The notes beneath the pieces are model-generated. The model was not told the origin of the DNA, did not search any database, and saw only the letters and a program-made list of their open reading frames with translations. From a virus (taxonomy: Duplodnaviria > Heunggongvirae > Uroviricota > Caudoviricetes), in the IMG/VR virus record IMGVR_UViG_2698536428_000004, positions 1 through 13,152 of that record: a stretch of 13,152 nucleotides of DNA, one strand, 5' to 3'. The position numbers and the translations under genes were made by a program. Of the stretch, positions 1 to 13,152 are shown piece by piece (the stretch's first letter is position 1; each line of letters opens with the position of its first letter).

Positions 1-166
1 ACGTCATCGCGGTGAACGTACCGTCCTGGTTGGGGAACACGCCACATACCAGAGATTCGTTGTTGCCAAGATCGATAGTATCCATGCTGACCTCATTTCC
101 CCTTAACGCCGGGGTAGCGGAACAAAAACCTGCTGCATAGTTATTAAAGTCGAACCCTGCCATCAT
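1..166 (-). CDS. Partial CDS, 5' portion only (continues past the window start); hypothetical protein
   Basis: Open minus-strand frame from ATG at 166 (alternative ATG at 85 with GAGGT 5 nt upstream) running off the window edge with no stop; translation begins MMAGFDFNNYAAGFCSATPALRGNEVSMDTIDLGNNESLVCGVFPNQDGTFTAMT. Not in the ORF track because it is truncated. No family recognised. Confidence 0.3.
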   Translation of the reverse strand, partial: MMAGFDFNNYAAGFCSATPALRGNEVSMDTIDLGNNESLVCGVFPNQDGTFTAMT

Positions 167-325
167 GTTCTTACGCCTCGGGCTGGCTACTTAACCCCTG
201 ACCACTGCCTGGTAACTCGAAGTATTGCCTGGCGTTCTGTGGGGCGGGGTGGGTTGATGAAATAATGATGCACTTTTAAAGTTATGATGTCAACACTTAT
301 AAAGTTAGCTTTTGATCAATAAAAA

Positions 326-350
326 CCGCCTCGTGTGAAGCGGTTCTGCG
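326..350 (-). terminator. Rho-independent terminator downstream of the toxin gene
   Basis: On the minus strand, AACCGC-TTCACACGAG-GCGGTT hairpin followed by TTTTTATTG, immediately 3' of the toxin stop at 362. Confidence 0.5.
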
Positions 351-361
351 AAAAAAGAAGA

Positions 362-643
362 TTATCCAGGAAATTGTCGTCTGGAGTGGGTGACACTTAC
401 TATTTCAACACTCGAAGCGGCTACACGGTACAGAATGATATAGTTAGGATGAGCTACAATCTCACGCAAGCCAAACGCTCTGTCGCTTGATGGGTATAAG
501 TACGGATGTTCAGATAAAGCTAAAACACATGTCTCAATGCGAATCTTTAGCCTGCGTGCGGCATGGAGATTTTCTTTTGCAATATAGGCTACGATCTGAC
601 GTAAATCATCACGTGCAGAAGGTAGCCATAAAATGGGCAGCAT
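362..643 (-). CDS. Type II toxin, ParE/RelE superfamily
   Basis: 93 aa ORF (MLPILWLPSARDDLRQIVAYIAKE...IVSVTHSRR) with the layout of ParE/RelE plasmid-stabilisation toxins; its start overlaps the upstream antitoxin stop by 1 nt (ATGA), the classic antitoxin-then-toxin arrangement. Confidence 0.75.
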   Translation of the reverse strand: MLPILWLPSARDDLRQIVAYIAKENLHAARRLKIRIETCVLALSEHPYLYPSSDRAFGLREIVAHPNYIILYRVAASSVEIVSVTHSRRQFPG

Positions 644-834
644 TACACACTCCCGCTAGTCGCAGCAATTTGGGCAATGAGATTTTCCATTTCTGCCATT
701 ACATCATCATGAGGAATTGCAGGGCGCGGATCTGCAAGATTTGCAGCTACTTTTGCACGTAGCCATTCGTTGTAATTATTTTCTTGCTCAACGGTTTCAA
801 ACTCAGAAACCATCGGCGAAAGGGCAGTGTTCAT
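643..834 (-). CDS. Type II antitoxin (ParD/RHH-like), partner of the ParE/RelE toxin
   Basis: 63 aa when started at MNTALSPMVSEF; AGGAGG lies 5 nt upstream of this ATG (plus-strand cctcct at 842-847). The longer track ORF (to 897) has no RBS. Acidic C-terminus typical of antitoxins; overlaps the toxin start. Confidence 0.65.
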   Translation of the reverse strand: MNTALSPMVSEFETVEQENNYNEWLRAKVAANLADPRPAIPHDDVMAEMENLIAQIAATSGSV

Positions 835-863
835 AACATACCTCCTTTGGCTTATGATGTAGA

Positions 864-1271
864 CTATGCTCGGTGCCCTTTCTGGGCAGCGAGCCATCTT
901 GCAACAGTGCGCTCCATTGATTCTTTTTTGTCTTTCATGTCTTTAAGCATTTTTTCTTGATCTTCCTCTGGAAATGCTCCGAATGTTTGAAGCAGTTCCA
1001 TTTGCCTGGGGCCTATTTTCATAGTATCTGGCACCACAACCTGCTCTTCTTCGTTTGGCGGTAACATAAACCAATATGGGGGATAACCCGTTACTTCAGA
1101 AAGTTTATCAAGATTAGCTGTTGATGGACTTGTGATTCCGTGAACCCACTTTTGTACCGATTGCTGGGCAACACCAATCCTGCGGGCTAGTTCTGCCTGC
1201 TTAAGTCCTGTTTTTTCCAGTACCAATTTTATTCGGTACGTGGTTATTTCAAGGGTGGTCATTCGCTTCAT
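864..1271 (-). CDS. Prophage repressor, XRE-family HTH (DicA/CI-like), no S24 peptidase domain
   Basis: 135 aa; N-terminal HTH (LKQAELARRIGVAQQSVQKWVHG) matches XRE/Cro-CI DNA-binding domains; transcribed divergently from a Cro-like gene. Size and organisation resemble DicA of Qin-type prophages. Start may be ATG 1271 or 1262. Confidence 0.75.
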   Translation of the reverse strand: MKRMTTLEITTYRIKLVLEKTGLKQAELARRIGVAQQSVQKWVHGITSPSTANLDKLSEVTGYPPYWFMLPPNEEEQVVVPDTMKIGPRQMELLQTFGAFPEEDQEKMLKDMKDKKESMERTVARWLAAQKGHRA

Positions 1272-1322
1272 GCATTCATTTTACATAAAAAAAGTGTAAC
1301 TAGCACAATTAGCTTAAAGGTG

Positions 1323-1351
1323 TTGATAAACTAACTTTAAAAGTGTATAAA
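1323..1351 (+). promoter_or_regulatory. Candidate sigma-70 early promoter for the Cro-like gene, inside the divergent operator region
   Basis: TTGATA (1323-1328), 17 nt spacer, TATAAA (1346-1351), about 28 nt upstream of the ATG at 1379. The surrounding intergenic region (1272-1378) contains an inverted repeat TTAAAG-N15-CTTTAA and repeated AAGTGTA motifs that may be operator sites. Confidence 0.4.
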
Positions 1352-1378
1352 TCATGGTGATTCACTGGAGATAACGAT

Positions 1379-1645
1379 ATGCATGAATGTTTAAAAAATA
1401 AAATTCACCAAAGAGGGTTATCCCAAGCAGGTATTGCTCGTTTGATTGGATTACCGCAACAGGTTGTGTCTCGATGGGCTAATGGTCAGCAGGTCCCTGC
1501 ATCAAGGGTTCTGCAACTTTGTGAGATTATGGCGTGGGAGGTTACCCCCCACGAACTCCGACCTGATATTTATCCTAACCCAACAGACGGCTTGCCTGCT
1601 GAGTTTCAGACTAGCACACAGCCAGCGACGGGAGTTGATTCATGA
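1379..1645 (+). CDS. Cro-like HTH regulator (YdaS/DicC-like)
   Basis: 88 aa; GGAGA RBS upstream; HTH segment (LSQAGIARLIGLPQQVVSRWANGQ) and an ELRPDI motif recalled from YdaS-type Cro-like proteins; divergent from the repressor; stop overlaps the next gene (ATGA). Confidence 0.7.
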   Translation: MHECLKNKIHQRGLSQAGIARLIGLPQQVVSRWANGQQVPASRVLQLCEIMAWEVTPHELRPDIYPNPTDGLPAEFQTSTQPATGVDS

Positions 1646-2067
1646 AAATCAAGCATGAGCACATCCGCATGGCGATGAATGCCTGGGCATATCCTGACGG
1701 TGAGAAGGTGCCAGCTGCTGCTATTGCCAGAGCGTATTTTGAACTGGGGATGACATATCCCGAGTTGCACAACGACGACAGGCACAACGCGCTCTATCTC
1801 AACACCCAAAAGATTTTCCGTTGGCTGGATAAAGACACTCCTGATGCTGTTGAGAAAATTCAGGCATTGTTACCGGCGATCGAAAGGGCAATGCCACCTC
1901 CGCTGGTAGCCCGAATGCGCAGCCACAGTTCCGCTTATTTTCGGGAGCTGGTGGAGACGCAGGAACGGCTAGTGAAAGATATCGATGATTTCGTTGCATC
2001 AGCGATCGTTCTGTTCGACCAGATGAATCGTGGTGGTCCGGCGGGTAATTCCGTGGCTGTGCATTGA
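1642..2067 (+). CDS. YdaT-like protein (CII-like regulator, formerly annotated as a toxin)
   Basis: 141 aa starting MKIKHEH, translationally coupled to the Cro-like gene; size and position match YdaT of Rac-type prophages (from memory, not verified by search). Confidence 0.55.
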   Translation: MKIKHEHIRMAMNAWAYPDGEKVPAAAIARAYFELGMTYPELHNDDRHNALYLNTQKIFRWLDKDTPDAVEKIQALLPAIERAMPPPLVARMRSHSSAYFRELVETQERLVKDIDDFVASAIVLFDQMNRGGPAGNSVAVH

Positions 2068-2138
2068 CTGAAAATATTTATACCGGATCGCTTCCGGCAA
2101 TTCGTGAGTAAAAAGATTCGGTCTCAGAAGAGGTGAGT

Positions 2139-3179
2139 ATGGCTAATGCCTGGCTCAGATTATGGCATGACATGCCAAATGACCCTAAGTGGCGAACAAT
2201 TTCCAGGGTGTCAGGACAGCCAATCGCAACAGTGATGGCTGTGTATATCCACCTTCTGGTGAGCGCGTCACGAAATGTCACGACATGTCACGGCGTGTCA
2301 CTACGTGGTCACATTGATGTCACAACGGAAGATTTAGCAAGTGCACTTGATGTGACGGAAGAAGTAATTGATTCAATTTTGCAGGCGATGCAGGGGCGGG
2401 TGCTTGATGGAGATTTAATCACTGGATGGGAAAAACGCCAGGTAGCGAAAGAGGATAACGGCAACGTTTCGCAAACCGCGAAATCCCCGGCAGAGCGTAA
2501 GAGAGCACAACGCGAGAGGGAAAAATTACGAAAACAGAATGAGGGGTGTCACGATGAGTCACGCATATGTCACGACATGTCACTACGAGTCACGACAGAT
2601 AAAGATACAGATAAAGAATTAAACCCCACACATAACGCGCGCGTGCGCGAGAGTGCTCCGACCAGTGAATCGAACGGTACGCCGTTGCAGGCAGCGGAAC
2701 CTGATTACCAGGAAAGCCTGAGCGAACCCATCGGGAAGTTTCCGATGGCCGGTGGCTGGCATCCGTCGCCGGATTTTCGACGGCGGGCTGCACTGTGGGG
2801 AGTGGCTCTGCCGGAGCCTGAATTTACACCTGCTGAACTTGCCGCCTTCAGGGACTACTGGGCAGCTGAGGGGAAAGTTTTTACGCAGGTTCAGTGGGAG
2901 CAGAAATTCGCCCGTCACGTAAATCACGTCAGGGCGCAGGTTAAACCAGTCAGCAAGGGGGTGCGTCATGCAGCAGCACCAGGTGGCACCGCATCACGGG
3001 CAGTTCGGGAAATTCGGGCAGCACGTGAGCAGTGGGAACGTGAAAACGGATTTGTCAGCGACGGAAACGGCGTGGAAGCTGTGGGAGCTCATGGGGGAGG
3101 TTTATTCAAACCGCTGGACTCAGAAGAACGGGGCCGCACCTTCGAAGCTCTGGATTGCCCAGATTGGCGCGATGACTGA
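2139..3179 (+). CDS. Replication initiation protein (lambda O analogue; possibly DUF1376/YdaU-like)
   Basis: ATG at 2139 preceded by GAGGTG; 346 aa. Occupies the O position ahead of a P-like gene and contains two intragenic GTCAC iteron arrays plus an AT-rich tract, as in the lambda ori inside O. The 3' end is uncertain because the P-like frame overlaps from 2968. Confidence 0.55.
   Translation: MANAWLRLWHDMPNDPKWRTISRVSGQPIATVMAVYIHLLVSASRNVTTCHGVSLRGHIDVTTEDLASALDVTEEVIDSILQAMQGRVLDGDLITGWEKRQVAKEDNGNVSQTAKSPAERKRAQREREKLRKQNEGCHDESRICHDMSLRVTTDKDTDKELNPTHNARVRESAPTSESNGTPLQAAEPDYQESLSEPIGKFPMAGGWHPSPDFRRRAALWGVALPEPEFTPAELAAFRDYWAAEGKVFTQVQWEQKFARHVNHVRAQVKPVSKGVRHAAAPGGTASRAVREIRAAREQWERENGFVSDGNGVEAVGAHGGGLFKPLDSEERGRTFEALDCPDWRDD
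2267..2323 (+). repeat. Iteron array 1: six GTCAC-containing direct repeats at 10-11 bp spacing (candidate ori)
   Basis: GTCAC at 2267, 2277, 2287, 2297, 2308, 2319 (units such as GTCACGAAAT, GTCACGACAT, GTCACGGCGT); an inverted copy (TGTGAC) near 2352. Confidence 0.6.
2548..2625 (+). repeat. Iteron array 2: five GTCAC repeats followed by an AT-rich tract (candidate ori unwinding element)
   Basis: GTCAC at 2548, 2558, 2569, 2579, 2589; the unit GTCACGACAT is shared with array 1; followed by AGATAAAGATACAGATAAAGAATTAAA (2597-2623). Confidence 0.6.
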
Positions 3180-3633
3180 ACAGCAAATCAGGCTGGTCTG
3201 CCGTCAGTGCATGGACCGCTGCCGGGCGGGTGAAACGTGGCCCCCGGACCTGGCTGAGTTTGTTGCGCTGATTTCGGAGAGTGGGGCAAATCCATTTGGT
3301 CTTACGGTGGATGCCGTGATGGAAGAGTACCGGCGCTGGCGCAATGAATCCTGGCGGTACGACGGGAGTGATAAATACCCGTGGCCACAGCCTGTGCTGT
3401 ACCACATTTGCCTCGAGATGCGCACCAGAGGGATTGAACGTCAGATGACTGAAAGTGAGCTGAAACGACTTGCAGAACGACTGTTGACCAAATGGGCAAA
3501 GAATGTTGGTAACGGCATGAGTGTTCCGCCAGTGCGACGACAACTGGAAGGGCCAAAACACCCGCCAGGGCCAACGCCAATTGAGTTACTGAAACAGGAA
3601 TATGAGCGCCGGAAAGCGGCTGGTTTTGTCTGA
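2968..3633 (+). CDS. Replication protein P-like helicase loader
   Basis: 221 aa; ATG 2968 preceded by AAGGGGGTG; the segment LWIAQIGAMTEQQIRL...WPPDLAEFVALI...YPWPQP...ELKRLAERL parallels recalled lambda P (WVLAFRENGITTMEQV...PSPGQFVAWC...YPWKSN...ELRRKAADEL). Alternative starts at 3091 or 3172. Confidence 0.65.
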   Translation: MQQHQVAPHHGQFGKFGQHVSSGNVKTDLSATETAWKLWELMGEVYSNRWTQKNGAAPSKLWIAQIGAMTEQQIRLVCRQCMDRCRAGETWPPDLAEFVALISESGANPFGLTVDAVMEEYRRWRNESWRYDGSDKYPWPQPVLYHICLEMRTRGIERQMTESELKRLAERLLTKWAKNVGNGMSVPPVRRQLEGPKHPPGPTPIELLKQEYERRKAAGFV

Positions 3634-3666
3634 ATTTGAGAAATGATTTTGTCGGAGGAAATTTTA

Positions 3667-4380
3667 ATGGAAACCGTTTTTGACGCACTGAAAGCACTGA
3701 AAAGAGCCTCTTCACAGGAGGTGTCGGCCCGCCTTGGAATCAGCCGCGAAGATGCTGTCAACGAGCTGTGGAAGCTGAAACGCCGTGGTGAAGCAGATAA
3801 CAAGGGGTCGATGTGGTGGCTGACGATTGAGGCAACTGAAATGGTCACAAAAACCACTGCGGAGATGCTGATTAACTCAATTGAACAGCATGGTCCTCAG
3901 TCGGCTGACGAACTGGCGTTAATGTTCGGGATTACCTCCCGCCGGGCGAATTCAACGCTGGCAATGGCAATAAGCAAAGGTCGTCTGATTCGAGTAAATC
4001 AGAACGGTAAATTTCGTTACTGCCTGTCGGGCGATAATTTACCAGCAGAGCCGAAAGCTGCATCGGTAACGGAAACTGCTGGTAAAGCCTTTCCTCAGAC
4101 AGCAGGTGTTGCGTTACCAGTCCGGGAAGCGGAAACACAGGAAGAAATTAAAACTGAAAGTGTGGCGGTCACAGTGCAGTCACAGCCGTCGTTCACCAGA
4201 AAGCATCCGGATAGTCTGATTTTACCATCGCTGCATGTGGCTAACCGCGAACTGCGCCGGGCAAAAGGTCAGGTTCAGAAGTGGGAGCGTGTCTGCGCCG
4301 CGCTGCGGGAGCTGAACAAGCACCGGGATATTGTCCGACAGATTGTCGATTCCTCCAGTCGTATTGTGTCGGAAAAGTGA
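3667..4380 (+). CDS. Hypothetical prophage protein with two winged-helix-like modules
   Basis: ATG 3667 with GGAGGA 8 nt upstream; 237 aa; two HTH-like segments ([23 protein letters not shown] and [24 protein letters not shown]) and a charged, coiled-coil-like C-terminus. Confidence 0.55.
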
Positions 4381-4395
4381 TTGCCGGGGGCGCTT

Positions 4396-4899
4396 ATGGC
4401 AAAAGTATTTACACAAGAAGAGCGAGAAAAAATTAAAGGGCAGGTTGTTGAACTGGTACGCCGGAGTGGGCGCGAGACGTTACGGCAACTGGAAGCTAAA
4501 ACAGGTGCAACAAGATATCTGGTGAGCGTTCTCGCCAGAGAGCTGGTTGCCAGTGGTGATGTATACAACTCTGTCTACGGGTTATTTCCGTCTGAACAGG
4601 CTCGTAAAGACTGGCAAAACGCCCGCAAAAAACTTTCAAGGGAAAAGGCGAAGAAACCGGCTGTGGTTGATCCGGACCTTATCTGGTCATTACCAGACGG
4701 AGAAATACGCCGCTACGACAGGCGCCTGAACATAATCTGTCGCGAGTGCCGGAATAGTGAAGTTATGCAGCGAGTGCTGGCGTTTTATCAGGGGGTGGGG
4801 TCAGGAGGTGGTGCTGTGAGTGAAATTAGCTATCAGGCTTCAATTTCCGCTGGCATTCGCATCAAAGGAGAGGAGCATGGAAATAAAACCAGAAGATGA
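4396..4899 (+). CDS. Hypothetical protein, N-terminal winged-helix-like domain (possible paralogue of the preceding gene)
   Basis: ATG 4396 (track ORF starts at TTG 4381); 167 aa; N-terminus (GQVVELVRRSGRETLRQLEAKTGATRYLVSVLARELV) resembles the wH modules of the upstream protein; the C-terminal about 25 aa overlap the next gene and may be read-through. Confidence 0.45.
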   Translation: MAKVFTQEEREKIKGQVVELVRRSGRETLRQLEAKTGATRYLVSVLARELVASGDVYNSVYGLFPSEQARKDWQNARKKLSREKAKKPAVVDPDLIWSLPDGEIRRYDRRLNIICRECRNSEVMQRVLAFYQGVGSGGGAVSEISYQASISAGIRIKGEEHGNKTRR

Positions 4900-5233
4900 G
4901 TTAAGTAATATTGTTTTATTTCCGGTAAAAGAGGATGACCCACGTAATCAGGTTAATTTTCTTTATGAGCCATCGGAAAGACCATATTGTCATCACGCCT
5001 CTGTCCGGGTTGACGAAAAAGAGCGTCAGGTCCGCTGTAAAATCTGCGGTGCAGTTGTGGAGCCATTTGACTGGATGCCCTCTGTGGCGAAAAGAGAAAC
5101 CAGACTGGCAGATGATGTAAGGCTCTTGCGCCAGGAGGAACGGGAAAGGCGGAGAAATGTAGAAAAGCTAATTCAGATTGAGCGTAACGCGAAAGCGCGG
5201 ATACGCAGGGCGGCAAAATCAAGAACTGAATAA
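4877..5233 (+). CDS. Hypothetical protein with Cys/His zinc-ribbon-like motif and basic coiled-coil tail
   Basis: ATG 4877 preceded by AGGAGAGGAG; 118 aa; CHH...CKIC cluster then an R/E-rich helix (RLLRQEERERRRNVEKLIQIERNAKARIRRAAK). Confidence 0.55.
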   Translation: MEIKPEDELSNIVLFPVKEDDPRNQVNFLYEPSERPYCHHASVRVDEKERQVRCKICGAVVEPFDWMPSVAKRETRLADDVRLLRQEERERRRNVEKLIQIERNAKARIRRAAKSRTE

Positions 5234-5326
5234 TTAAATTTAGCACTGTTAAAAATTTAATCCTTAACCGGAGGGATTTCTGCACCCTCAGAACATCAGG
5301 AGGCCGTTCGAAATGGCGGTAGTGAA

Positions 5327-5509
5327 ATGCGAAAATTCAAAATAATTATTGAAACGGGAATAGCTGGTGGAGATTTTGAGGATGTATTCGAAGTAGATGA
5401 TGACGCAACACCTGATGAAATTCATGACGAAGCAAAAGAAATTTTCTTTAACTACTGCAATTACTCATACCACGAAATAAAAGATGAAGAGGAAGGACAA
5501 AATGGCTGA
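5327..5509 (+). CDS. Small acidic hypothetical protein (60 aa)
   Basis: ORF MRKFKIIIETGIAGGDFEDVFEVDDDATPDEIHDEAKE..., strongly D/E-rich; overlaps the next gene by 8 nt; weak own RBS, but a strong SD serves a 10-codon upstream ORF at 5313. Confidence 0.45.
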   Translation: MRKFKIIIETGIAGGDFEDVFEVDDDATPDEIHDEAKEIFFNYCNYSYHEIKDEEEGQNG

Positions 5510-5678
5510 TTTTGGTTCAACTAAATATAACGCCAGTTTTGAAGAATGGCATGAACTGTTAATGGATTATGCAGAGTTACGCGGTGGAAGTGCCGCTGAT
5601 GCTGAAGCATGGCGTGATGATTATGAAGCAGGGAAAACTCCGGTCGAAGCATATTGTGATGAGTGGGGCGATGAATGA
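5502..5678 (+). CDS. Small acidic hypothetical protein (58 aa)
   Basis: ATG 5502 preceded by GAGGAAGGA; MADFGSTKYNASFEEWHELLMDYAELRGGSAADAEAWRDDYEAGKTPVEAYCDEWGDE; stop overlaps the next start (ATGA). Confidence 0.5.
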   Translation: MADFGSTKYNASFEEWHELLMDYAELRGGSAADAEAWRDDYEAGKTPVEAYCDEWGDE

Positions 5679-6034
5679 GCGAGATTAATTATCAGGAAGG
5701 GCATGAAAAGGCAGGGCAGGCAAAACCAGTGGCATGGCGATATCGCTACGTGAAAAAAGGCGTTACAGACTTTCAGGGGAAGCAGTGGGCTGGTGACTGG
5801 AAATATGTCCAGACAAAAGAAGATTGTAACGACAGACCGAACTATGAAATTCAGGCGTTATTCACGGCCCCGCCAGCCCCGGTGACATCAGAAGGACTAG
5901 TTAAAGCCGTGTGCTTTTATGAACAGGTAAAGCGTGAGAATCCACCAGTCGAAACAGGTGCATGGAAAGATGCTGTTGACTGGGTACTCAAAGAGGCTTG
6001 CCAGGCTGTAAGCATTAGCAACAAAGGGGGGTGA
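5675..6034 (+). CDS. Hypothetical protein (119 aa)
   Basis: Translationally coupled ORF (ATGA overlap with the upstream gene); no recognisable motif. Confidence 0.5.
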   Translation: MSEINYQEGHEKAGQAKPVAWRYRYVKKGVTDFQGKQWAGDWKYVQTKEDCNDRPNYEIQALFTAPPAPVTSEGLVKAVCFYEQVKRENPPVETGAWKDAVDWVLKEACQAVSISNKGG

Positions 6035-6037
6035 GTA

Positions 6038-6214
6038 ATGCGTGTGGCATGTATCAGTTTGTTACCGTACCCGACTCGTTTTTTGGCTTCTGCGCTAATT
6101 GCAAAGCCGCGTGTCCTGATGGATGACAGCATCATCCCGACACCAAAGCGCCGCCATACCGGTATTGCAGCGGCACGACGAGCAGCAAAGAAACGCAGGA
6201 GAGCAAAACGATGA
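6038..6214 (+). CDS. Small hypothetical protein (58 aa): hydrophobic N-terminus, very basic C-terminus
   Basis: Not in the ORF track (<60 aa). ATG 6038 preceded by AAGGGGGGTGA; hand-translated as MRVACISLLPYPTRFLASALIAKPRVLMDDSIIPTPKRRHTGIAAARRAAKKRRRAKR; stop overlaps the next ATG (ATGA). Confidence 0.35.
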   Translation: MRVACISLLPYPTRFLASALIAKPRVLMDDSIIPTPKRRHTGIAAARRAAKKRRRAKR

Positions 6215-6405
6215 AAAACCGTAAAGCAAAAATTCTGTTAGCTCGCAGAAACGGTGTTGGTGTCTGGCGGTGGGTGAGGATTAGTAACAGACGGGTGAGG
6301 TTGACGGGGTGTTGCGGTGTTATGGGGCACAGTTGTTGCAAAAAGCCCAGCGCGGCGCAAAACCGCTGGAAAAACCACTGTTATCTGCGCACTAAAGGAG
6401 AGTGA
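6211..6405 (+). CDS. Small basic Cys-rich hypothetical ORF (64 aa); coding status uncertain
   Basis: ATG 6211 preceded by AGGAGA and coupled to neighbours, but the DNA is G/T-rich with GGGTGAGG repeats, so it may be regulatory DNA rather than coding. Confidence 0.3.
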   Translation: MKNRKAKILLARRNGVGVWRWVRISNRRVRLTGCCGVMGHSCCKKPSAAQNRWKNHCYLRTKGE

Positions 6406-6406
6406 G

Positions 6407-6922
6407 ATGGCGTTAACACACCGCGAACTCTGTCAGATTGCGTACAAGTTCCTTAAGCGCAACGGGTTCAAGGTTTGCTTTCATGACCGCTTTATAGCTG
6501 TAACCAGTACCGGAGAACAGCCAGATGCTATGGGATTCAGAAATTCAGCATCATGCCTGATAGAGGCGAAGTGTTCTCGTGCTGACTTGTTGGCAGATAG
6601 AAAAAAGCGTTTCCGTAAAAATCCCTCTCTTGGCATGGGCGACTGGAGATTCTTTATTAGTGAGCCGGGAATTATTTCAATTGAGGATTTACCACCTGGC
6701 TGGGGATTACTTCACGTTGTTAACGGAAGAGTACGGAAAGTACATGGGTGGCCCAAGGGTAATTGCTGTTGGGGTGATCCTGACGATAAGCCATTTACTG
6801 GAAATAAGCAGGTTGAATGCGATTACATGTTGTCTGCATTAAGGCGCATGGAGTTGAGGGGACACCTTAATGAAATATATGACGGTGTAATCGTTAATAA
6901 GCAAGAAGGAAGCGCGGCATGA
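6407..6922 (+). CDS. Putative PD-(D/E)xK-type nuclease (VRR-NUC/MmcB-like), hypothetical
   Basis: ATG 6407 preceded by AAGGAGA; 171 aa; motif GEQPDAMGF...[11 protein letters not shown] matches the D...(D/E)xK core of restriction-endonuclease-fold nucleases. Assignment is by motif only. Confidence 0.5.
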
Positions 6923-7263
6923 CCACTTTTACCAGAGAGCAGTTAATAGCTCACGCAGAGGAGACTATTGAAGCACAGAGACTGTGCATACCGGGCACAA
7001 TCGACCATGACATCATCCGCACATATAAGATGGATATTGCTGTTCTGGAAATCGCACTGGCATCGCTGGCAGCAGAGCCAGCCGGTAAATTGCATGAATA
7101 CAAACCAGTGGGACATCAGCGTCTGGTCGACGAGTTAACCATGCTGGTAAAGCAGTTAACCTGGCAACTGAGGAAAACGAAGCCGGACTGTAAATTGCCG
7201 GGTAAGGCGATGGACTACCTGAAGCGAAACGGACTGATAAGCGCAGAGGATGTTTTACGATGA
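6919..7263 (+). CDS. Hypothetical protein (114 aa)
   Basis: ORF with ATGA overlap to the upstream gene; no motif recognised. Confidence 0.5.
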
Positions 7264-7343
7264 CCTGGCCTGAGGCATTCACAACGGTAGGGATCGCAAT
7301 GGCGGTGGCGCTGGTGGTGTATTCGATTTGTCGCTGGGGATAA
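7260..7343 (+). CDS. Candidate 27-aa single-pass membrane peptide
   Basis: Not in the ORF track. ATG 7260 overlaps the upstream stop (ATGA); AGAGGA 8 nt upstream; hand-translated as [27 protein letters not shown] with a hydrophobic core. Confidence 0.3.
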
Positions 7344-7350
7344 AAACGAT

Positions 7351-7378
7351 TTGCGGGGAAAGGATAGTTAAGTAGAAT
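7351..7378 (+). promoter_or_regulatory. Candidate hok mRNA promoter
   Basis: TTGCGG (7351-7356), 16 nt spacer, TAGAAT (7373-7378); the predicted 5' end near 7381-7385 coincides with the upstream complementary box of the hok mRNA. Confidence 0.35.
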
Positions 7379-7435
7379 TGCTGCGGGTGCTTGAGGCTAT
7401 CTGTCTCAGGCATGAATACCAAAAGGCAGATAGAG

Positions 7436-7515
7436 AAAAGCCCCAGTTAACATTGCGCGTCCGGCAAGACGCTTAACATTAATCTGAGGCCATATCTATG
7501 CTCTACACACGTAGG
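7436..7515 (-). ncRNA. sok: Candidate Sok-like antisense RNA (approximate boundaries)
   Basis: By analogy with hok/sok loci the antisense RNA lies opposite the hok leader. The minus strand shows a possible -35/-10 (TTGCCT, 17 nt, TAACCT; plus coordinates about 7551-7523) and a hairpin GCGTC-TTGCCG-GACGC (plus coordinates about 7459-7474). Ends are not defined by sequence alone. Confidence 0.3.
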
Positions 7516-7554
7516 TTAGCCTCTTACGTGCCGAAAGGCAAGGAGAAGCAGGCT

Positions 7555-7710
7555 ATGAAGCAGCAAAAGGCGATGCTAATCGCCCTTATCGTCATCTGTT
7601 TAACCGTCATAGTGACGGCACTGGTAACGAGGAAAGACCTCTGCGAGGTACGAATCCGAACCGGCCAGACGGAGGTCGCTGTCTTCACAGTCTACGAACC
7701 TGAGGAGTAA
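7555..7710 (+). CDS. hok: Hok/Gef-family type I toxin (51 aa membrane peptide)
   Basis: MKQQKAMLIALIVICLTVIVTALVTRKDLCEVRIRTGQTEVAVFTVYEPEE closely parallels recalled Hok ([52 protein letters not shown]); AAGGAGA RBS; the track ORF 7498-7710 is an in-frame 5' extension. Confidence 0.85.
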   Translation: MKQQKAMLIALIVICLTVIVTALVTRKDLCEVRIRTGQTEVAVFTVYEPEE

Positions 7711-7778
7711 GAGACCAGGCGGGGGAGAAATCTCCCGCCACCTCTGATGTGTCAGGCATCCTCAACGCACCCGCGCTT

Positions 7779-7806
7779 AACCCGCTTCGTCGGGTTTTGT
7801 TTTTTC
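7779..7806 (+). terminator. Rho-independent terminator of the hok transcript
   Basis: AACCCG-CTTCGT-CGGGTT hairpin followed by TTGTTTTTT. Confidence 0.6.
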
Positions 7807-7877
7807 CTGGCATTCTGGTTTACAATTCGCATGCCAGCCTGAACAACTGGCACCTGCTGCGCCAGCAGAGACAACCG

Positions 7878-8156
7878 ATGGCGCACGATACCAAATTATA
7901 CAATTCTGATAATTCAGCCGTCTTTGCCAGCAGGCACGGGCGGCGTTCTCATGCATTCAAATCTGACTGGTTCCAGCACGCCCCATGCACTGAAGAACAG
8001 GCCGAATGGCTGATTCAGAACTACCGCAGACGTGGGTATGAGTTTAGGAAAACCCTCAGCCTCGATTATCGTCACTGGATAATCTCCGTCAGGCTTCCTT
8101 ACTCTGAACGCCCACCGCGTCCGTCCCGCACATTCCAGCAACGCATCTGGAGGTAA
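7878..8156 (+). CDS. Hypothetical protein (92 aa); position corresponds to rem of Qin-type prophages
   Basis: Internal ATG at 7878 chosen because the upstream part of the track ORF (from 7749) overlaps the hok terminator; weak RBS; family not recognised from sequence. Confidence 0.4.
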   Translation: MAHDTKLYNSDNSAVFASRHGRRSHAFKSDWFQHAPCTEEQAEWLIQNYRRRGYEFRKTLSLDYRHWIISVRLPYSERPPRPSRTFQQRIWR

Positions 8157-8157
8157 C

Positions 8158-9207
8158 GTGCGGGTATTACTTCGACCTGTTCTGGTTCCGGAACTCGGGC
8201 TGGTGGTCCTTAAGCCAGGCCGTGAATCCATGCCTATATTCCACAATACCCGGGTACTGGTGGAGCCGGAACCGAAAAGCATGCGTAATCTGCCGTCCGG
8301 GGTCGTTCCTGCCGTTCGCCAGCCGCTGGTGGAAGACAAAACATTGCTGCCGTTTTTCAGTAACGCACGGGTAATTCGTGCTGCTGGTGGTGCTGGTGCA
8401 TTGTCTGACTGGCTGTTGCGCCATATTAAATCCTGCCAGTGGCCACACGGCGATTATCATCACAGCGAAACCGTTATTCACCGTTATGGTACCGGCGCAA
8501 TGGTGTTGTGCTGGCACTGCGACAACCAGCTGCGTGACCAGACATCCGAATCACTCGAGCAACTTGCTCATCAAAACTTGTCAGCATGGATGATTGACGT
8601 CATACGCCATGCAATGAATGGCACGCAGGAGCGGGAATTATCGCTGGCTGAATTATCCTGGTGGGCGGTCTGCAATCAGGTGGCGGACGCGCTACCAGAG
8701 GCAGCATTACGTCGTTCTCTGGGGTTACGTGCGGAAAAAATTCGCTCAGTATACCGCGAGAGCGACATCGTGCCGGGAGAGCAGACCGCCACCAGCATCC
8801 TGAAACAGCGCACAAAAAATCTTGCGCCGCTGCCTCACGCCCACCAGCAACAGAACTCACCACAGGAAAAGACGGTGGTCAGCATTGCCGTTGATCCTGA
8901 GTCTCCGGAATCTTTCATGAAACGACCTAAACGTCGCCGCTGGGTTAACGAGAAATACAAACGCTGGGTGAAGACACAGCCGTGTGCGTGTTGTGGTAAG
9001 CCAGCCGACGATCCCCATCACCTGATTGGTCATGGTCAGGGCGGAATGGGGACAAAATCTCACGATATTTTCACGCTACCGCTGTGTCGGGAGCATCACA
9101 ACGAGCTTCATGCGGATCCGCTGGCGTTCGAAGAAAAGCATGGTTCTCAGGTTGATTTAATTTTTCGTTTTCTTGATCACGCCTTTGCAACTGGCGTGCT
9201 TGGGTAA
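8158..9207 (+). CDS. DUF968-family protein with C-terminal HNH-like Cys/His motif (YdfU/Ref-like)
   Basis: 349 aa from GTG 8158 (GGAGG upstream); C-terminal CACCGKPADDPHHLIGHGQGG...LCREHHNELH is an HNH/zinc-binding signature; length and position (hok, small ORF, this gene, then antiterminator) mirror ydfU of Qin. Confidence 0.65.
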   Translation: MRVLLRPVLVPELGLVVLKPGRESMPIFHNTRVLVEPEPKSMRNLPSGVVPAVRQPLVEDKTLLPFFSNARVIRAAGGAGALSDWLLRHIKSCQWPHGDYHHSETVIHRYGTGAMVLCWHCDNQLRDQTSESLEQLAHQNLSAWMIDVIRHAMNGTQERELSLAELSWWAVCNQVADALPEAALRRSLGLRAEKIRSVYRESDIVPGEQTATSILKQRTKNLAPLPHAHQQQNSPQEKTVVSIAVDPESPESFMKRPKRRRWVNEKYKRWVKTQPCACCGKPADDPHHLIGHGQGGMGTKSHDIFTLPLCREHHNELHADPLAFEEKHGSQVDLIFRFLDHAFATGVLG

Positions 9208-9219
9208 AAGAGGTGACTG

Positions 9220-9579
9220 ATGCTCATAGATTTGGTTTTACCTTACCCGCCGACGGTGAACACTTACTGGCGACGCCGTGGCAGCACATATTTTGTATCA
9301 AAAGCCGGGGAGCGTTATCGCCGGGCAGTGGCGCTTATTGTTCGCCAGCAGCGCTTGAAATTAAGCCTGTCCGGACGGTTGGCAATAAAAATTATTGCAG
9401 AACCACCGGATAAGCGCCGCCGTGACCTGGACAATATTCTGAAAGCACCGCTGGATGCGCTTACGCATGCGGGGTTGTTAATGGACGATGAGCAGTTTGA
9501 TGAAATCAATATTGTACGTGGTCAGCTTGTTCTTGGTGGTCGGCTGGGTGTGAAGATTTACAAAATTGAGAGTGAGTGA
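9220..9579 (+). CDS. rusA: Crossover junction endodeoxyribonuclease RusA (Holliday junction resolvase)
   Basis: 119 aa; AAGAGGTGA RBS; LPYPPTVNTYWRR...PDKRRRDLDNILKAPLDALTHAGLLMDDEQ parallels E. coli RusA (LPWPPSNNRYYRH...[30 protein letters not shown]). Confidence 0.85.
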   Translation: MLIDLVLPYPPTVNTYWRRRGSTYFVSKAGERYRRAVALIVRQQRLKLSLSGRLAIKIIAEPPDKRRRDLDNILKAPLDALTHAGLLMDDEQFDEINIVRGQLVLGGRLGVKIYKIESE

Positions 9580-10148
9580 GCGTAAATATGATATATCCGG
9601 AAATTACAGGCAAAAGCGGCGAACATTTACGCCTGAACACGCTGGAAGCAGTCTGGATCCAGGGGAAATTACGGATGTGGGGGCGGTGGTCGTATATCGG
9701 TGGGGGTAAATCCGGAAATATGTTTAACCGGTTACTGGTTTCGAAAAAGCTGACGAAAACAGCAGTTAATGAGGTTTTACGCAGAATGAAGAAATCCGGG
9801 CTGGAAAAACCGGAACTTGAGGCATTTTTTCGGGATATGACCAGAGGGAAGCAGAAGAGCTGGTTGTCACATTGTACAGACACAGAGGCGTTGATTATTG
9901 ATCGCGTTATCAGTGAGGTGCTTGGGGAATATCCCGGACTAATCAATATTCTCCGGCAAAGGTACGAAGGACGGGGAATGAGCAAACTGAAAATGGCCGA
10001 AAGGTTAAATGCAGATCATCCTGAGTGGACGTTGGTTACGTGCAGACGCCGAATTGATCAGTGGTTGGGGATATCTGAATTTATGTTACATGCCCCCATG
10101 CGTATGGCTTTTGTTACAGAGAAAAAAATGTTGCAAACTGATCAATAA
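9576..10148 (+). CDS. Probable late-gene antiterminator (Q-like), assigned mainly by position
   Basis: 190 aa ORF immediately after rusA (start GTG 9576 or ATG 9588) and immediately before a short region with a strong intrinsic terminator, the position lambdoid phages give to Q; the family was not confirmed by a motif I can name. Confidence 0.4.
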   Translation: MSVNMIYPEITGKSGEHLRLNTLEAVWIQGKLRMWGRWSYIGGGKSGNMFNRLLVSKKLTKTAVNEVLRRMKKSGLEKPELEAFFRDMTRGKQKSWLSHCTDTEALIIDRVISEVLGEYPGLINILRQRYEGRGMSKLKMAERLNADHPEWTLVTCRRRIDQWLGISEFMLHAPMRMAFVTEKKMLQTDQ

Positions 10149-10220
10149 ACTGCTTCAATCCGTATAAGCTTCGCAAGGCTGTATCGCGAGGCGAAATGCA
10201 AGTTTTTTTCGCACAAGGAA

Positions 10221-10243
10221 GCCACCGGAAGGTGGTTTTTTTG
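10221..10243 (+). terminator. Rho-independent terminator (candidate tR-prime-like, Q-antiterminated)
   Basis: GCCACC-GGAA-GGTGG hairpin followed by TTTTTTT, about 75 nt after the Q-like stop; a second T7 run at 10203-10209 lies just upstream. Confidence 0.55.
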
Positions 10244-10365
10244 TGTCCGTAATATACAGCAGCGCAATAAATTCGCTGGTGGTTATTAATACCGTTCTTT
10301 CAGCTTGCTGGCTTTTTCGACAAGAGTTATTGGTGTGTCACGTTAACCGGAAAAGGGAAAAAGAC

Positions 10366-10563
10366 ATGCTGAAACAGCAGGATATGACCGAAACCGCCAG
10401 AGTGGTGTTTAATGAATTAAGCGTCACCGAACCGGCGACAGTCGGGGAGATTGCACAGAATACGTACCTTTCACGCGAACGCTGTCAGTTAATACTGACC
10501 CAGCTTGTTATGGCTGGGCTGGCAGACTATCAGTTCGGTTGTTACAGACGCCTTCAGTCCTGA
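10366..10563 (+). CDS. Small hypothetical protein (65 aa), winged-helix-like
   Basis: ATG 10366 preceded by a purine-rich tract (AAAGGGAAAAAGA); MLKQQDMTETARVVFNELSVTEPATVGEIAQNTYLSRERCQLILTQLVMAGLADY...; a strong terminator overlaps its stop. Confidence 0.4.
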   Translation: MLKQQDMTETARVVFNELSVTEPATVGEIAQNTYLSRERCQLILTQLVMAGLADYQFGCYRRLQS

Positions 10564-10576
10564 AGGCTTTTTTATT
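10550..10576 (+). terminator. Rho-independent terminator
   Basis: GCCTTCAG-TC-CTGAAGGC perfect inverted repeat followed by TTTTTTATTT; the stop codon of the upstream small ORF lies inside the stem. Confidence 0.55.
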
Positions 10577-11131
10577 TGTGGTAAATGGGCGGCTGATGGG
10601 TGTGGTGGTTGTTGCTTTCCCGTTGCTGAAAAAGAAAGCATCAGGCGATTAGCAGGGTATCAGTTACCCGTTGAAATTTTTAAATACCTCACAATTCAGG
10701 CGGTTGACTGTTGTCTGGTTTGCGGGGAGTTTGTTAAAAGAAACTGGCATGGTGAATCCCCCTGTGCGGAGGGGCAATCAGCAACTGGTGTTTTGTCACC
10801 GACCCTTATCCTTTCTGTGCGGGTTCAGGTGCTGATACTGAACTCACCGGGAGGCAACCGGCACCATGCAATGGCACATAGCGCCACTCTCCAGCCCCTC
10901 TCCGGAGGGGCTTTCTTGTGGGCAAAAAAAAGCCTGAGTGGGTTCGGGCAACAGCATGAGATATACATTTTTATAATCGAATGGATTTTAACCAGAATTC
11001 ATAAGGCTGCGCAACTGCGCGGTCTTTTTCGAATTGCGGGCTGTCGTCTCCCTTCTGCCATTGTCCTGTAACTTCCGGACTTCAGCCCGCTCCTTATTTT
11101 ACTCACAATATTATCCCGGCCGGGAGGATTC

Positions 11132-13120
11132 ATGGCATTTAAACACTATGATGTGGTCAGGGCGGCATCGCCGTCAGACCTTGCGGATGCGCTTGCTCAA
11201 AAAATTCGTGAAGGATGGCAACCATACGGCGGGCCGTTTTCTTCGTATACGGATGATGGCGCAGCACTTATTCAGGCGATTGTCGCAGAAGGTGATGTCA
11301 CCACACCTGTGGTGGTGAAGCCGTCGGATGGAGAAGGCACAGTTATCAGCACCACCAGCGAACCGGAGTATTACTTTGTTGTTGTTCTGGCGGGGCAGTC
11401 AAACTCAATGTCTTTTGGTGAAGGGCTGCCGCTGCCGGAGACATATGACCGTCCGGACCCGCGTATTAAACAGCTGGCGCGTCGCAGTACGGTGACGCCG
11501 GGTGGTGCCGCCTGTAAATATAACGACATCATTCCGGCAGACCACTGTCTGCATGATGTGCAGGATATGAGTAACCTGAATCATCCTCATGCAGACCTGA
11601 GTAAGGGACAGTACGGTTGTGTGGGGCATGCTCTGCATGTTGCCAAAAAGCTGCTGCCGTTTATGCCTGCGAATGCGGGTATCCTTCTTGTTCCATGTGG
11701 CCGTGGCGATTCGGGATTTACTGCGGGGGCCGAGGGGGCGTTTAACGAAGCGTCGGGAGCGACCGCAGGCTCGTCCCTGTGGGGGGCGGATAAACCGCTG
11801 TATCATGACCTGGTCAGCAGAACCCGTGCGGCCCTGAAGAAAAATCCGAAGAACGTGCTGTTATCAGTGATCTGGATGCAGGGAGAAAAAGATGTCAGTT
11901 CGGGGAGACATGCAGAACACAATGCGCTTTTCCTTGCCATGGTAAATCAGTTCCGTACGGAACTGGCAGATGTGGCAGAGCAGTGTACTGGCGGGACAAC
12001 GGCCAGCGTCCCGTGGATTTGCGGTGATACCACGTACTACTGGAAGGAAAGGTATGCAGTGCCGTATGAGGCGGTTTACGGTGGGTATAAAGGAAAAGCT
12101 GCGCAGAATATTCACTTTGTGCCGTTGATGACGGATGAGCATGGTGTGAATGTGCCGACAAACGAGCCGTCAGAAGATCCGGACATTATCCCGGCGGGAT
12201 ACTATGGCGCTGCGTCACGCACTGCCAGTAACTGGACGGCAGCCGATCGTAAAACGCACTTCAGTTCATGGGCGCGAAGAGGCCTTGTTTCAGACCGCCT
12301 GGCAGGTGCCATTTTGCAGTACGCCGGGCGGACATTATCGTTCCTTACCGGGCAGAGCGCACCGCAGTCGGGTGGTACAACGCCTGTCAGTCCGGGGACA
12401 CCGGATGTTGAGAAACCGCAGGATGGCGGTGTTGCTGGTACTGGTCATGATGAGGCCGTGAGCAGTACCAGGACGGTGGCTGAATATGATGCGAACAGTG
12501 GAAATGGTGCATTGACAGAGCAGCAGTGGGGCGCTTCCGGCGGCAAAGGCACTGTGACTGATGACGGTGGACGGAAAGCGCTGCGACTGGAAAAACAGCC
12601 CGGTAAACTGACGTCCTGGAAAATGTTCCGTACTATTGCAGTGGAGGAGGCAAAAAATCTTCTCAGCAAGGGGGGGGAAATTGCCGTACGGTTCAAAATT
12701 CCGGATGGAAGCGAGCTGGTGAACGGACAGTTTGTCTTTGGTATCTACTGGCCGGTGTCGCAGTGGGCGTCAGGCGCGACAGCAAACAGTATGCTGGCAT
12801 CATTCTTCCTTCAGACGGATACATCAAATCTTAATCTGATGCACCAGAAGGGCTCCTCGAATGCACAACTGGGTACATTTGGTACGTTTGACCATAACTG
12901 GCATACGGTTGTTTTCCGCTTTGCGGGAAATAACAGCGAAAGAGTTGTTCCGGTGATTGATGGTGCAGAGCAGACGGCATTTGACCTTGTGATGTGGACA
13001 AATGATGGCTTTACAGCAGATACGCTGACGCTGACAGATATCACGGGGGCAAAAGCGACGTATCCGGTACTGCTTGATACGGTCACAGTCAAAGTTAACG
13101 AAAACCGGGAATCAGCATAA
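11132..13120 (+). CDS. nanS: Prophage sialate O-acetylesterase (NanS-p type; DUF1737 N-terminus plus SASA/SGNH esterase domain)
   Basis: 662 aa; GGGAGGA RBS; N-terminus MAFKHYDVVRAASPSDLADAL...; esterase signature VVLAGQSNSM (GQSN catalytic-serine motif); location downstream of the Q/terminator region matches the nanS-p genes of EHEC lambdoid prophages. Confidence 0.75.
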   Translation: MAFKHYDVVRAASPSDLADALAQKIREGWQPYGGPFSSYTDDGAALIQAIVAEGDVTTPVVVKPSDGEGTVISTTSEPEYYFVVVLAGQSNSMSFGEGLPLPETYDRPDPRIKQLARRSTVTPGGAACKYNDIIPADHCLHDVQDMSNLNHPHADLSKGQYGCVGHALHVAKKLLPFMPANAGILLVPCGRGDSGFTAGAEGAFNEASGATAGSSLWGADKPLYHDLVSRTRAALKKNPKNVLLSVIWMQGEKDVSSGRHAEHNALFLAMVNQFRTELADVAEQCTGGTTASVPWICGDTTYYWKERYAVPYEAVYGGYKGKAAQNIHFVPLMTDEHGVNVPTNEPSEDPDIIPAGYYGAASRTASNWTAADRKTHFSSWARRGLVSDRLAGAILQYAGRTLSFLTGQSAPQSGGTTPVSPGTPDVEKPQDGGVAGTGHDEAVSSTRTVAEYDANSGNGALTEQQWGASGGKGTVTDDGGRKALRLEKQPGKLTSWKMFRTIAVEEAKNLLSKGGEIAVRFKIPDGSELVNGQFVFGIYWPVSQWASGATANSMLASFFLQTDTSNLNLMHQKGSSNAQLGTFGTFDHNWHTVVFRFAGNNSERVVPVIDGAEQTAFDLVMWTNDGFTADTLTLTDITGAKATYPVLLDTVTVKVNENRESA

Positions 13121-13152
13121 CCGGCAAAAAAAACCGCCAGCTGGCCTGAAAC

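Follow-up and report, generated by a model that had tools for sequence, protein, structure and literature searches.

Iteron plasmids replicate with winged-helix initiators (pPS10 RepA, F RepE, R6K pi) that act on helix-phased direct repeats beside an A/T-rich unwinding element, and their iterons are about 17-22 bp long and lie outside the rep gene. In P4 (ori plus crr) and in R6K, two separated iteron clusters cooperate. The iterons of phage lambda are about 19 bp long and have an internal dyad, and a G/C-rich segment lies right of its A/T tract. That an origin made of iterons plus an A/T tract can lie inside the initiator gene itself is well known. In lambda and the Stx phages the origin sits in the middle of gene O, where the stretch joining the N-terminal (DNA-binding) part of the protein to its C-terminal part holds the iterons and, after them, an A/T-rich tract; Stx phages carry four or six iterons, a difference of 13 extra O residues, and the iterons that matter most are those beside the tract (PMC7466680). 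In SPP1, oriL lies inside gene 38 and consists of direct repeats and an A/T-rich unwinding element, and its protein G38P also binds oriR (PMC6316719). The proteins of TP901-1 (ORF13/Rep) and Tuc2009 (Rep2009) bind direct repeats in their own genes that serve as the phage origin (PMC8965321), and for the Rac prophage an origin, oriJ, is reported as active (PMC3945230). Here, we analyze a 13,152-nucleotide stretch of Caudoviricetes DNA (IMG/VR record IMGVR_UViG_2698536428_000004, positions 1 to 13,152; hereafter the window) and describe two arrays of GTCAC repeats and an A/T-rich tract inside its replication initiator gene.

Comparison with related genes makes it probable that this element is the replication origin of the prophage, placed within the coding sequence of its own initiator. 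An earlier note on this DNA, made from its letters, had suggested a candidate origin here, and that reading fits every comparative test that we ran. Judged by analogy, the element most likely works like the origins of lambda, SPP1 and TP901-1 while standing outside their protein families. What is new is an initiator family of about 900 clusters at 50% identity, the 10-bp direct units, a two-array layout conserved across phyla, a conserved GATAAA tract, and a series of core variants at fixed positions. Our literature search found no description of these repeats or of the family's origin, and the paper on Eru replication types mentions neither iterons nor origins; the search covered few subscription journals, and an older account is possible.

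Two helix-phased arrays and an A/T-rich tract within one gene

The element lies wholly within the initiator gene, a 1041-nucleotide (nt) reading frame on the plus strand (2139-3179) that encodes 346 residues, as the earlier note had it. On this strand GTCAC starts at 2267, 2277, 2287, 2297, 2308 and 2319 in array 1 (six GTCAC(G) units, 2267-2323) and at 2548, 2558, 2569, 2579 and 2589 in array 2 (five GTCACG units, 2548-2594). The steps from unit to unit are 10, 10, 10, 11 and 11 bp in the first array and 10, 11, 10 and 10 bp in the second, and together the arrays hold 11 of the 23 plus-strand copies of GTCAC in the window. Taking the plus-strand rate outside the initiator gene (0.00091 per nt) as baseline, the Poisson probability is 2.6e-11 for six copies in 57 nt and 1.0e-9 for five in 46 nt. 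None of 2000 shuffles reached six copies per 60 nt, the shuffle maximum being four, which confirms that the arrays are far beyond chance. The eleven units in two clusters at 10-11 bp of the earlier note are thus real, as is the unit that it found shared between them (ATGTCACGACATGTCAC, at 2275 and 2567). Its five-base GTCAC unit is present but incomplete: what is conserved is a six-base unit, GTCACG, inside a 10-bp repeat, a G following GTCAC in 7 of the 11 units.

These direct repeats have no dyad within the unit. A single inverted unit (2352-2356, minus strand, read as GTGAC on the plus strand) lies 29 bp downstream of array 1, and no further cluster of at least three GTCAC units was found in the window beyond the two arrays. 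An extra plus-strand GTCAC pair 11 bp apart (GGTCACAGTGCAGTCACAG, 4168-4183) falls inside the DUF1627 gene (3643-4380) and may be due to chance or represent additional initiator sites.

Array 2 (gene nt 410-456), which we propose to hold the core iterons, runs directly into an A/T-rich tract of GATAAA-type repeats on the plus strand (2595-2623, gene nt 457-485), the proposed DNA unwinding element. The interval singled out by the earlier note, 2597-2623, is indeed 81% A+T; the value is 77% over 2594-2623 (GACAGATAAAGATACAGATAAAGAATTAAA) and 46% gene-wide. Of all 30-mers in the gene the tract is the least stable, and among the regions of the window it ranks fifth in instability (top 0.2%); within it an 11-nt sequence, ACAGATAAAGA, is repeated directly and without mismatch (2595 and 2607). 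The gene therefore combines at least three helix-phased direct repeats (six and five units) with an adjoining A/T-rich region of low stability, as iteron origins do, and it carries iterons and then an A/T-rich tract in its middle, which is the layout of ori-lambda. Thirteen nucleotides right of the tract is an alternating C/G near-palindrome, CGCGCGCGTGCGCG (2636-2649), whose stem was flagged on the minus strand by a terminator scan and which may or may not belong to the origin. As it is present too in the Rac-SA53 prophage (L004, about 2545-2556), it goes with the DnaT-type C-terminal module described below; it may be likened to the G/C-rich segment right of the A/T tract in lambda.

With lambda and the Stx phages the window shares an origin layout inside the initiator gene and a lambda-P family gene as the next gene. 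It departs from lambda's 19-bp iterons, as the earlier note had remarked, in having direct repeats of 10-11 bp with a 6-bp core, and in having two arrays about 225 bp apart instead of one; its A/T tract is a conserved GATAAA repeat, and its protein has a DnaT-like C-terminal half and no Phage_rep_O domain. The resemblance to SPP1 lies in repeats and a putative unwinding element within the gene of the presumed origin-binding protein and in a second cluster of sites, which in SPP1 is bound by G38P. However, the second SPP1 site is intergenic and about 13 kb off, whereas both arrays here lie within 330 bp of one gene, and SPP1 encodes its own helicase. TP901-1 and Tuc2009 likewise keep direct repeats inside the initiator's own gene, but the TP901-1 repeats are A/T-rich with a 15-nt period, unlike the 10-bp units with G/C-containing cores in the window. 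Kinship to these characterized replisome organizers was rejected, as no meaningful hhalign match was obtained between the family profile and either SPP1 G38P (E 0.76; G38P carries the Pfam domain Phg_2220_C) or TP901-1 Rep (HTH_36 plus DnaB_2; E 0.078 over 14 columns). The plasmid initiators also show no detectable kinship, the sole such Foldseek match being 4pta at E 2.2.

Conservation of cores and tract as DNA

The arrays are not a peptide repeat, because with a period of 10 bp the core is read in each of the three codon phases (for the G of GTCAC, phases 2, 0, 1, 2, 1, 0 in array 1 and 1, 2, 1, 2, 0 in array 2). Eight homologues at 85-100% identity differ in the spacers but not in the cores. 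In close homologues exactly two array 1 units are missing through a 21-bp deletion, and the two extra array 1 units of the window's lineage (about 2283-2303; 21 bp, 7 residues) fall in a low-confidence loop of the protein model (residues 49-55). In array 2, a compensated +1/-1 indel alters the peptide and leaves all cores intact. Across relatives at the level of E. coli, represented by 48 distinct sequences drawn from viral contigs and genomes, the variable columns number 6 of 55 in the cores and 26 of 59 in the spacers (Fisher 1.3e-4); at third codon positions elsewhere they number 74 of 114. Far from being absent in close homologues, where the earlier note had weighed a mere coding repeat, the cores are conserved more strongly at this level than any other nucleotides of the gene. 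Nearly all core variation falls in the first array 2 unit, which lies at the greatest distance from the A/T tract, and unit numbers in arrays 1 and 2 vary (6+5, 6+4, 4+5, 6+6 and 6+9). As in Stx phages, iteron number changes protein length, here by 7 residues between four and six units, and the units farthest from the A/T tract, dispensable in lambda and the Stx phages, are decaying in this family.

Conservation of the cores extends well beyond E. coli. The N-terminal domain is 45-65% identical in proteins of Klebsiella, Enterobacter, Pseudomonas, Chromobacterium, Bordetella and Azotobacter, and a scan with one genome per species yielded 56 loci. About 25 of these, from Gamma- and Betaproteobacteria, have the two-array GTCAC layout, with units at gene nt 129, 139, 149 and 160 and at about 387-418, in hosts that range from 34% GC (Entomomonas) to 69% GC (Pseudothauera). 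Array 1 has four units in most relatives; array 2 has three to five units at the equivalent place in 24 GTCAC-type relatives, and the inverted GTGAC recurs at the equivalent of gene nt 193 in most of them. We examined synonymous drift in a codon alignment of 21 GTCAC-type genes, the window's included (hosts 34-69% GC), restricted to codons of conserved residues. The commonest codon makes up a fraction of 0.98 at the six codons whose third base lies in a core and 0.52 at 47 codons outside (Mann-Whitney p = 5e-5), with frozen core codons such as Ser TCA (95%), Val GTC (100%) and Gly GGT (100%). The motif WLRLWHDMPNDPKWRT is invariant and nonetheless drifts freely at its synonymous sites. Purifying selection thus acts on the core DNA itself.

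These results bear on the idea that the repeats serve the protein or the mRNA, either as a repetitive peptide or as GUCAC motifs or structure for translational control. The sense strand carries all eleven direct units, as would suit an mRNA-level motif, and the encoded segments SRNVT..RGH.DVT and CHDESR.VT.DKD are conserved in relatives. A period of 10-11 nt is no multiple of three, however, and the three codon phases together with the compensated frameshift, which alters the peptide and spares the cores, led us to reject a peptide repeat. Synonymous sites are frozen only within cores, a conserved inverted unit lies on the other strand, the A/T tract adjoins, and both arrays encode loop or disordered linker. 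The mRNA version is disfavored further by the spacing, which equals one turn of B-DNA and would mean nothing to single-stranded RNA. We regard a protein- or mRNA-level function as highly improbable.

In more distant relatives, which include Alphaproteobacteria, Acidobacteria and a planctomycete genome bin, the core itself changes while the 10-bp period and both positions in the gene are kept. GTAACG units occur in Pantoea, Enterobacter hormaechei, Marinobacter, Sphingomonas and others, GTGACG units in one genome bin, CGAACGC units in about 16 loci (among them Acidobacteria, Kordiimonas and a Gemmataceae bin), and ACTACG units in two loci. Every variant ends in ACG(C). With array-encoded residues masked, core types roughly track protein clades, with exceptions, and a GATAAA-type tract follows the second array in most relatives with non-GTCAC cores. 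Three relatives (L046, L056 and L063) have array 2 only, that of L046 reaching up to seven units, so array 2 plus the tract forms the constant core and array 1 a frequent accessory. From this distribution array 2 and the tract look like the core origin, with array 1 as an auxiliary. The N-terminal domain family as a whole comprises 904 clusters at 50% identity (E at or below 1e-10), from Enterobacteria to Acidobacteria. The module is common, yet its N-terminal domain has no Pfam family and its origin is unannotated; two phased arrays followed by a (GATAAA)n tract provide a searchable signature for annotation. The core-variant series offers a natural system for the joint change of initiator and origin specificity under the constraint of a reading frame.

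The A/T tract is itself conserved as DNA. It follows the last core of array 2 in 22 of 22 GTCAC-type genes, including the window's and even those in hosts at 69% GC, at 67-83% A+T over 24 nt (54% in L034, where it is degenerate), and the sequence after the last core reads (C/T)AGATAAAGATA(A/C)AGA... In hosts of at least 55% GC, GAT outnumbers GAC 29 to 4 within the tract as against 84 to 135 in the remainder of the gene (Fisher 7e-8), and AAA outnumbers AAG 24 to 3 as against 44 to 98 (Fisher 2e-8). Because this codon bias opposes host GC, the tract is being kept A/T-rich, and as a specific repeat, against mutational and codon pressure.

The tract also bears on whether the arrays are initiator sites with mainly regulatory roles (autorepression, a transcriptional roadblock or copy control by array pairing), with replication starting elsewhere in the phage genome. 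There are two separate arrays, the first with no strong A/T tract beside it, and unit numbers vary among close relatives, as listed above for those of E. coli. Moreover, SPP1 G38P binds the distant oriR too, and there it is proposed to stall forks and not to fire (PMC6316719). Against a mainly regulatory role stands the tract, which adjoins array 2 in every GTCAC-type relative, against host GC, and is the least stable stretch of the gene; nor is there another GTCAC cluster of three or more units in the window, and the flanks of related loci are unremarkable by count alone. Regulation as the main role seems unlikely to us, and we continue to favor an origin at array 2.

Homology among initiator genes breaks inside the same tract: N-terminal matches stop at gene nt 479 and C-terminal ones start at 459-475, and cross-species similarity typically stops at residues 150-162. 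The DnaT-like C-terminal half found in the window is joined elsewhere to a DUF1376 domain (YdaU of Rac-SA53) or to an HTH_36-type domain (PPompW phages), and in both of these the DnaT-like half and the P-like gene are 89-93% identical to those of the window. Rac-SA53 moreover occupies the same slot with the same neighbors (repressor, Cro-like, YdaT-like, initiator, loader), but its YdaU, with the DUF1376 N-terminal domain, has no GTCAC arrays and carries other repeats upstream of the joint. These repeats, GGTGTTCAAACA and GGTGTTTGAACA, have 10-nt cores, TGTTCAAACA and TGTTTGAACA, that are mutual reverse complements (L004 2439-2473), and a PPompW phage has five or six ACACCCAAAAAC-type units just upstream of its joint (L005 2307-2503). 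Both sets are candidate origins of their respective modules. The arrangement appears to follow the module logic of lambdoid O genes, by analogy with which a DNA-binding half and its sites travel together. The converse exchange is seen in the Tritos/2015C lineage (L003 3001-4071, L006 2501-3571, L010 1501-2571), which has the same N-terminal domain and arrays but another C-terminal half after the tract. That half has only a short DnaT-like tail (residues 333-356), and the next gene is a DUF977 gene, with no P-like gene; with a different C-terminal half and no P-like gene following, the route of helicase loading in this lineage must differ.

Mosaic joints exactly in the A/T tract could also mean that the repeats are conserved linker DNA for exchange of N- and C-terminal modules, or that another phage or host factor binds them, with no direct role in initiation. 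A similar AAAGATACAGAT tract before the DnaT-like half of Rac-SA53 YdaU, where the N-terminal domain is different, points the same way. Recombination linkers, however, need neither 10-bp helical phasing nor multiple copies. One host factor is unlikely to be common to Gamma-, Beta- and Alphaproteobacteria, Acidobacteria and a planctomycete, and the core changes with the protein subfamily. Nor do GTCAC or GTGAC occur in the intergenic region between the repressor and Cro-like genes (1272-1378) or anywhere else within 391-2266. Since the motif is missing there, the arrays are not repeats of a repressor/Cro operator motif, and repressor or Cro operators were rejected as an explanation. We judge a linker or a foreign factor to be quite improbable.

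The initiator protein and a proposed route to initiation

The window protein matches two PHROG families of 'replication initiation protein' (1408, E 3e-112; 3729, E 3.5e-90), and a 100% identical copy is labeled 'DnaT-like ssDNA-binding domain-containing protein' in RefSeq. Weaker PHROG links lead to a 'replisome organizer' (4880, E 8e-6) and a 'DnaD-like helicase loader' (10469, E 1.3e-7). Residues 201-267 (2739-2939, plus strand) form a DnaT-like single-stranded DNA-binding domain (Pfam PF17948 DnaT, E 1.6e-17, 63.4 bits against a cut-off of 25). Alignment to the NCBIfam DnaT model (E 1.5e-27) reaches 96 bits against an equivalog cut-off of 201, and the protein is therefore not an equivalog of bacterial DnaT. 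The earlier note had called the gene O-like. By analogy the name holds, and the P-like neighbor is a true lambda-P family member, but in descent it does not: the window protein has no match to PF04492 (Phage_rep_O) at E up to 1, this family is absent from the top families of 74 relatives, the C-terminal part is DnaT-like, and the N-terminal part belongs to no Pfam family. Homology to lambda O was thus ruled out. For PF09681 (Phage_rep_org_N) the window N-terminus gave no match, and 2 of the 74 relatives gave sub-threshold ones (E 0.067-0.12, about 13 bits against 23.3).

An AlphaFold2 model (m56ae07700986), built on the 74 relatives, places helices at residues 4-11, 16-25, 29-45, 63-70 and 74-84 and a beta hairpin at about 85-95. 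The predicted helix-turn-helix (residues 63-84) is preceded by a loop (46-62) and followed by the hairpin. This N-terminal domain (residues 1-100; 2139-2438, plus strand), which we presume to bind the iterons, would be winged-helix-like, a generic and tentative fold call. Confidence per block (predicted local distance difference test, pLDDT) is about 72-95 in the N-terminal helical parts and 57-67 over the loop at residues 41-60, and residues 136-170 are modeled as disorder with pLDDT < 50. The arrays lie in structurally permissive parts of the protein: residues 43-62, encoded by array 1, span the last part of helix 3, the loop that precedes the helix-turn-helix, and a short strand, and residues 137-162, encoded by array 2 and the tract, form the disordered linker, where the module joint is also found. 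Directly before array 2, a conserved basic helix (residues 117-137, AERKRAQREREKLRKQ; 2487-2549, plus strand) is predicted. Within the family, K115, R120, K121, R125 and R127 are invariant or nearly so. The basic segment as a whole, KSAAERKREQRERE (residues 114-137; 2478-2549), is near-invariant in related loci.

From these features we propose the following mechanism. The winged-helix-like domain of the initiator would bind the 10-bp repeats, with their GTCACG core, head to tail along one face of the helix. The complex formed on array 2 (2548-2594) would destabilize the adjoining GATAAA-repeat tract (2595-2623), where unwinding would start, and the DnaT-like domain, together with the lambda-P-like protein encoded at 3172-3633, would bring in the host DnaB helicase. 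Array 1 (2267-2323) and the inverted unit at 2352 would be an auxiliary cluster of initiator sites about 225 bp upstream, perhaps working together with array 2 through looping, or else serving autoregulation or copy control. An origin at this location would give a handle on prophage replication and copy number after induction, and on replicon specificity and exclusion between co-resident prophages.

A more speculative proposal, which we think improbable, is that the iteron-encoded segments themselves take part in iteron recognition, residues 43-62 lying by the helix-turn-helix and residues 137-152 by the basic helix. Binding site and reading head would then be one stretch of DNA, changing together in a widespread family that carries a two-array origin in its own frame. 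If such an origin does lie in the frame, a change of iteron specificity (GTCACG, GTAACG, GTGACG, CGAACGC, ACTACG) necessarily rewrites two segments of the protein. Were the proposal true, new replicon specificities and incompatibility groups could arise along a self-referential route.

Several points weigh against the origin reading or against recognition of the repeats by the initiator. For this module and its homologues, our search of the literature found no experiment that demonstrates binding, unwinding or autonomous replication. Co-inheritance of the arrays with the N-terminal domain is automatic, because the arrays lie in its coding region, and is no proof of recognition. No predicted helix-turn-helix residue tracks core type, so that the search for specificity residues came back empty. 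Foldseek matches of the N-terminal domain are weak (E > 0.4), though almost all are to winged-helix regulators or DNA-binding proteins. No Pfam family covers the N-terminal 135 residues in the window protein or the 74 relatives, and sequence searches found no relative with a solved structure. Five relatives (L035, L040, L051, L057 and L058) have few or no periodic cores; L051, L035 and L040, with one unit or none, retain the A/T tract, which in L051 is a run of nine GATAAA units, while L057 and L058 have neither units nor tract. Neither the DnaA-box pattern TTWTNCACA nor the IHF-site pattern WATCAANNNNTTR occurs in the window, although the lambda origin can do without both. Plasmid-borne copies all sit in large replicons (47.7-439 kb, plus two chromosome-sized records that look like misfiled chromosomes), with no sign of autonomous replication. 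The sense-strand orientation of the eleven direct units, already mentioned, counts on this side as well.

Genomic context and occurrence

The element stands among replication genes. The gene that follows the initiator (3172-3633, plus strand), whose start overlaps the initiator stop by 8 nt, encodes a lambda-P-like helicase loader: it matches Pfam PF06992 (Phage_lambda_P; E 1.5e-15, 57.8 bits against a cut-off of 26) and PHROG 109 ('P-like helicase loader', E 7e-62), and RefSeq has 'replication protein P' at the matching L001 coordinates. The order in the window is repressor, Cro-like, YdaT-like, initiator and P-like gene. The upstream genes at 1379-2067 are YdaS-like (with a Cro-type helix-turn-helix) and YdaT-like; Pfam calls them 'toxins', yet they occupy the cro and cII positions of an immunity region.

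The first 562 nt of the initiator gene (2139-2700), which include both arrays and the tract, have a 100% identical copy in an E. coli prophage with the order integrase, excisionase, exonuclease, dicB, repressor, Cro-like, YdaT-like, initiator, replication protein P and DUF1627. Strain PS2Canimalfeces12 carries such an identical copy. Of 5426 complete E. coli genomes, 2229 have a match to these 562 nt, O157:H7 prophages among them.

A promoter and terminator scan of 1200-3700 found nothing above shuffles in or beside the arrays, and Rfam gave no RNA family in the array region. Elsewhere in the window, among regions 7385-7560 and 10718-10923, Rfam identified the sok antitoxin RNA (116 bits), beside a hok-type open reading frame at 7498-7710, and the small RNA STnc100 (141 bits).

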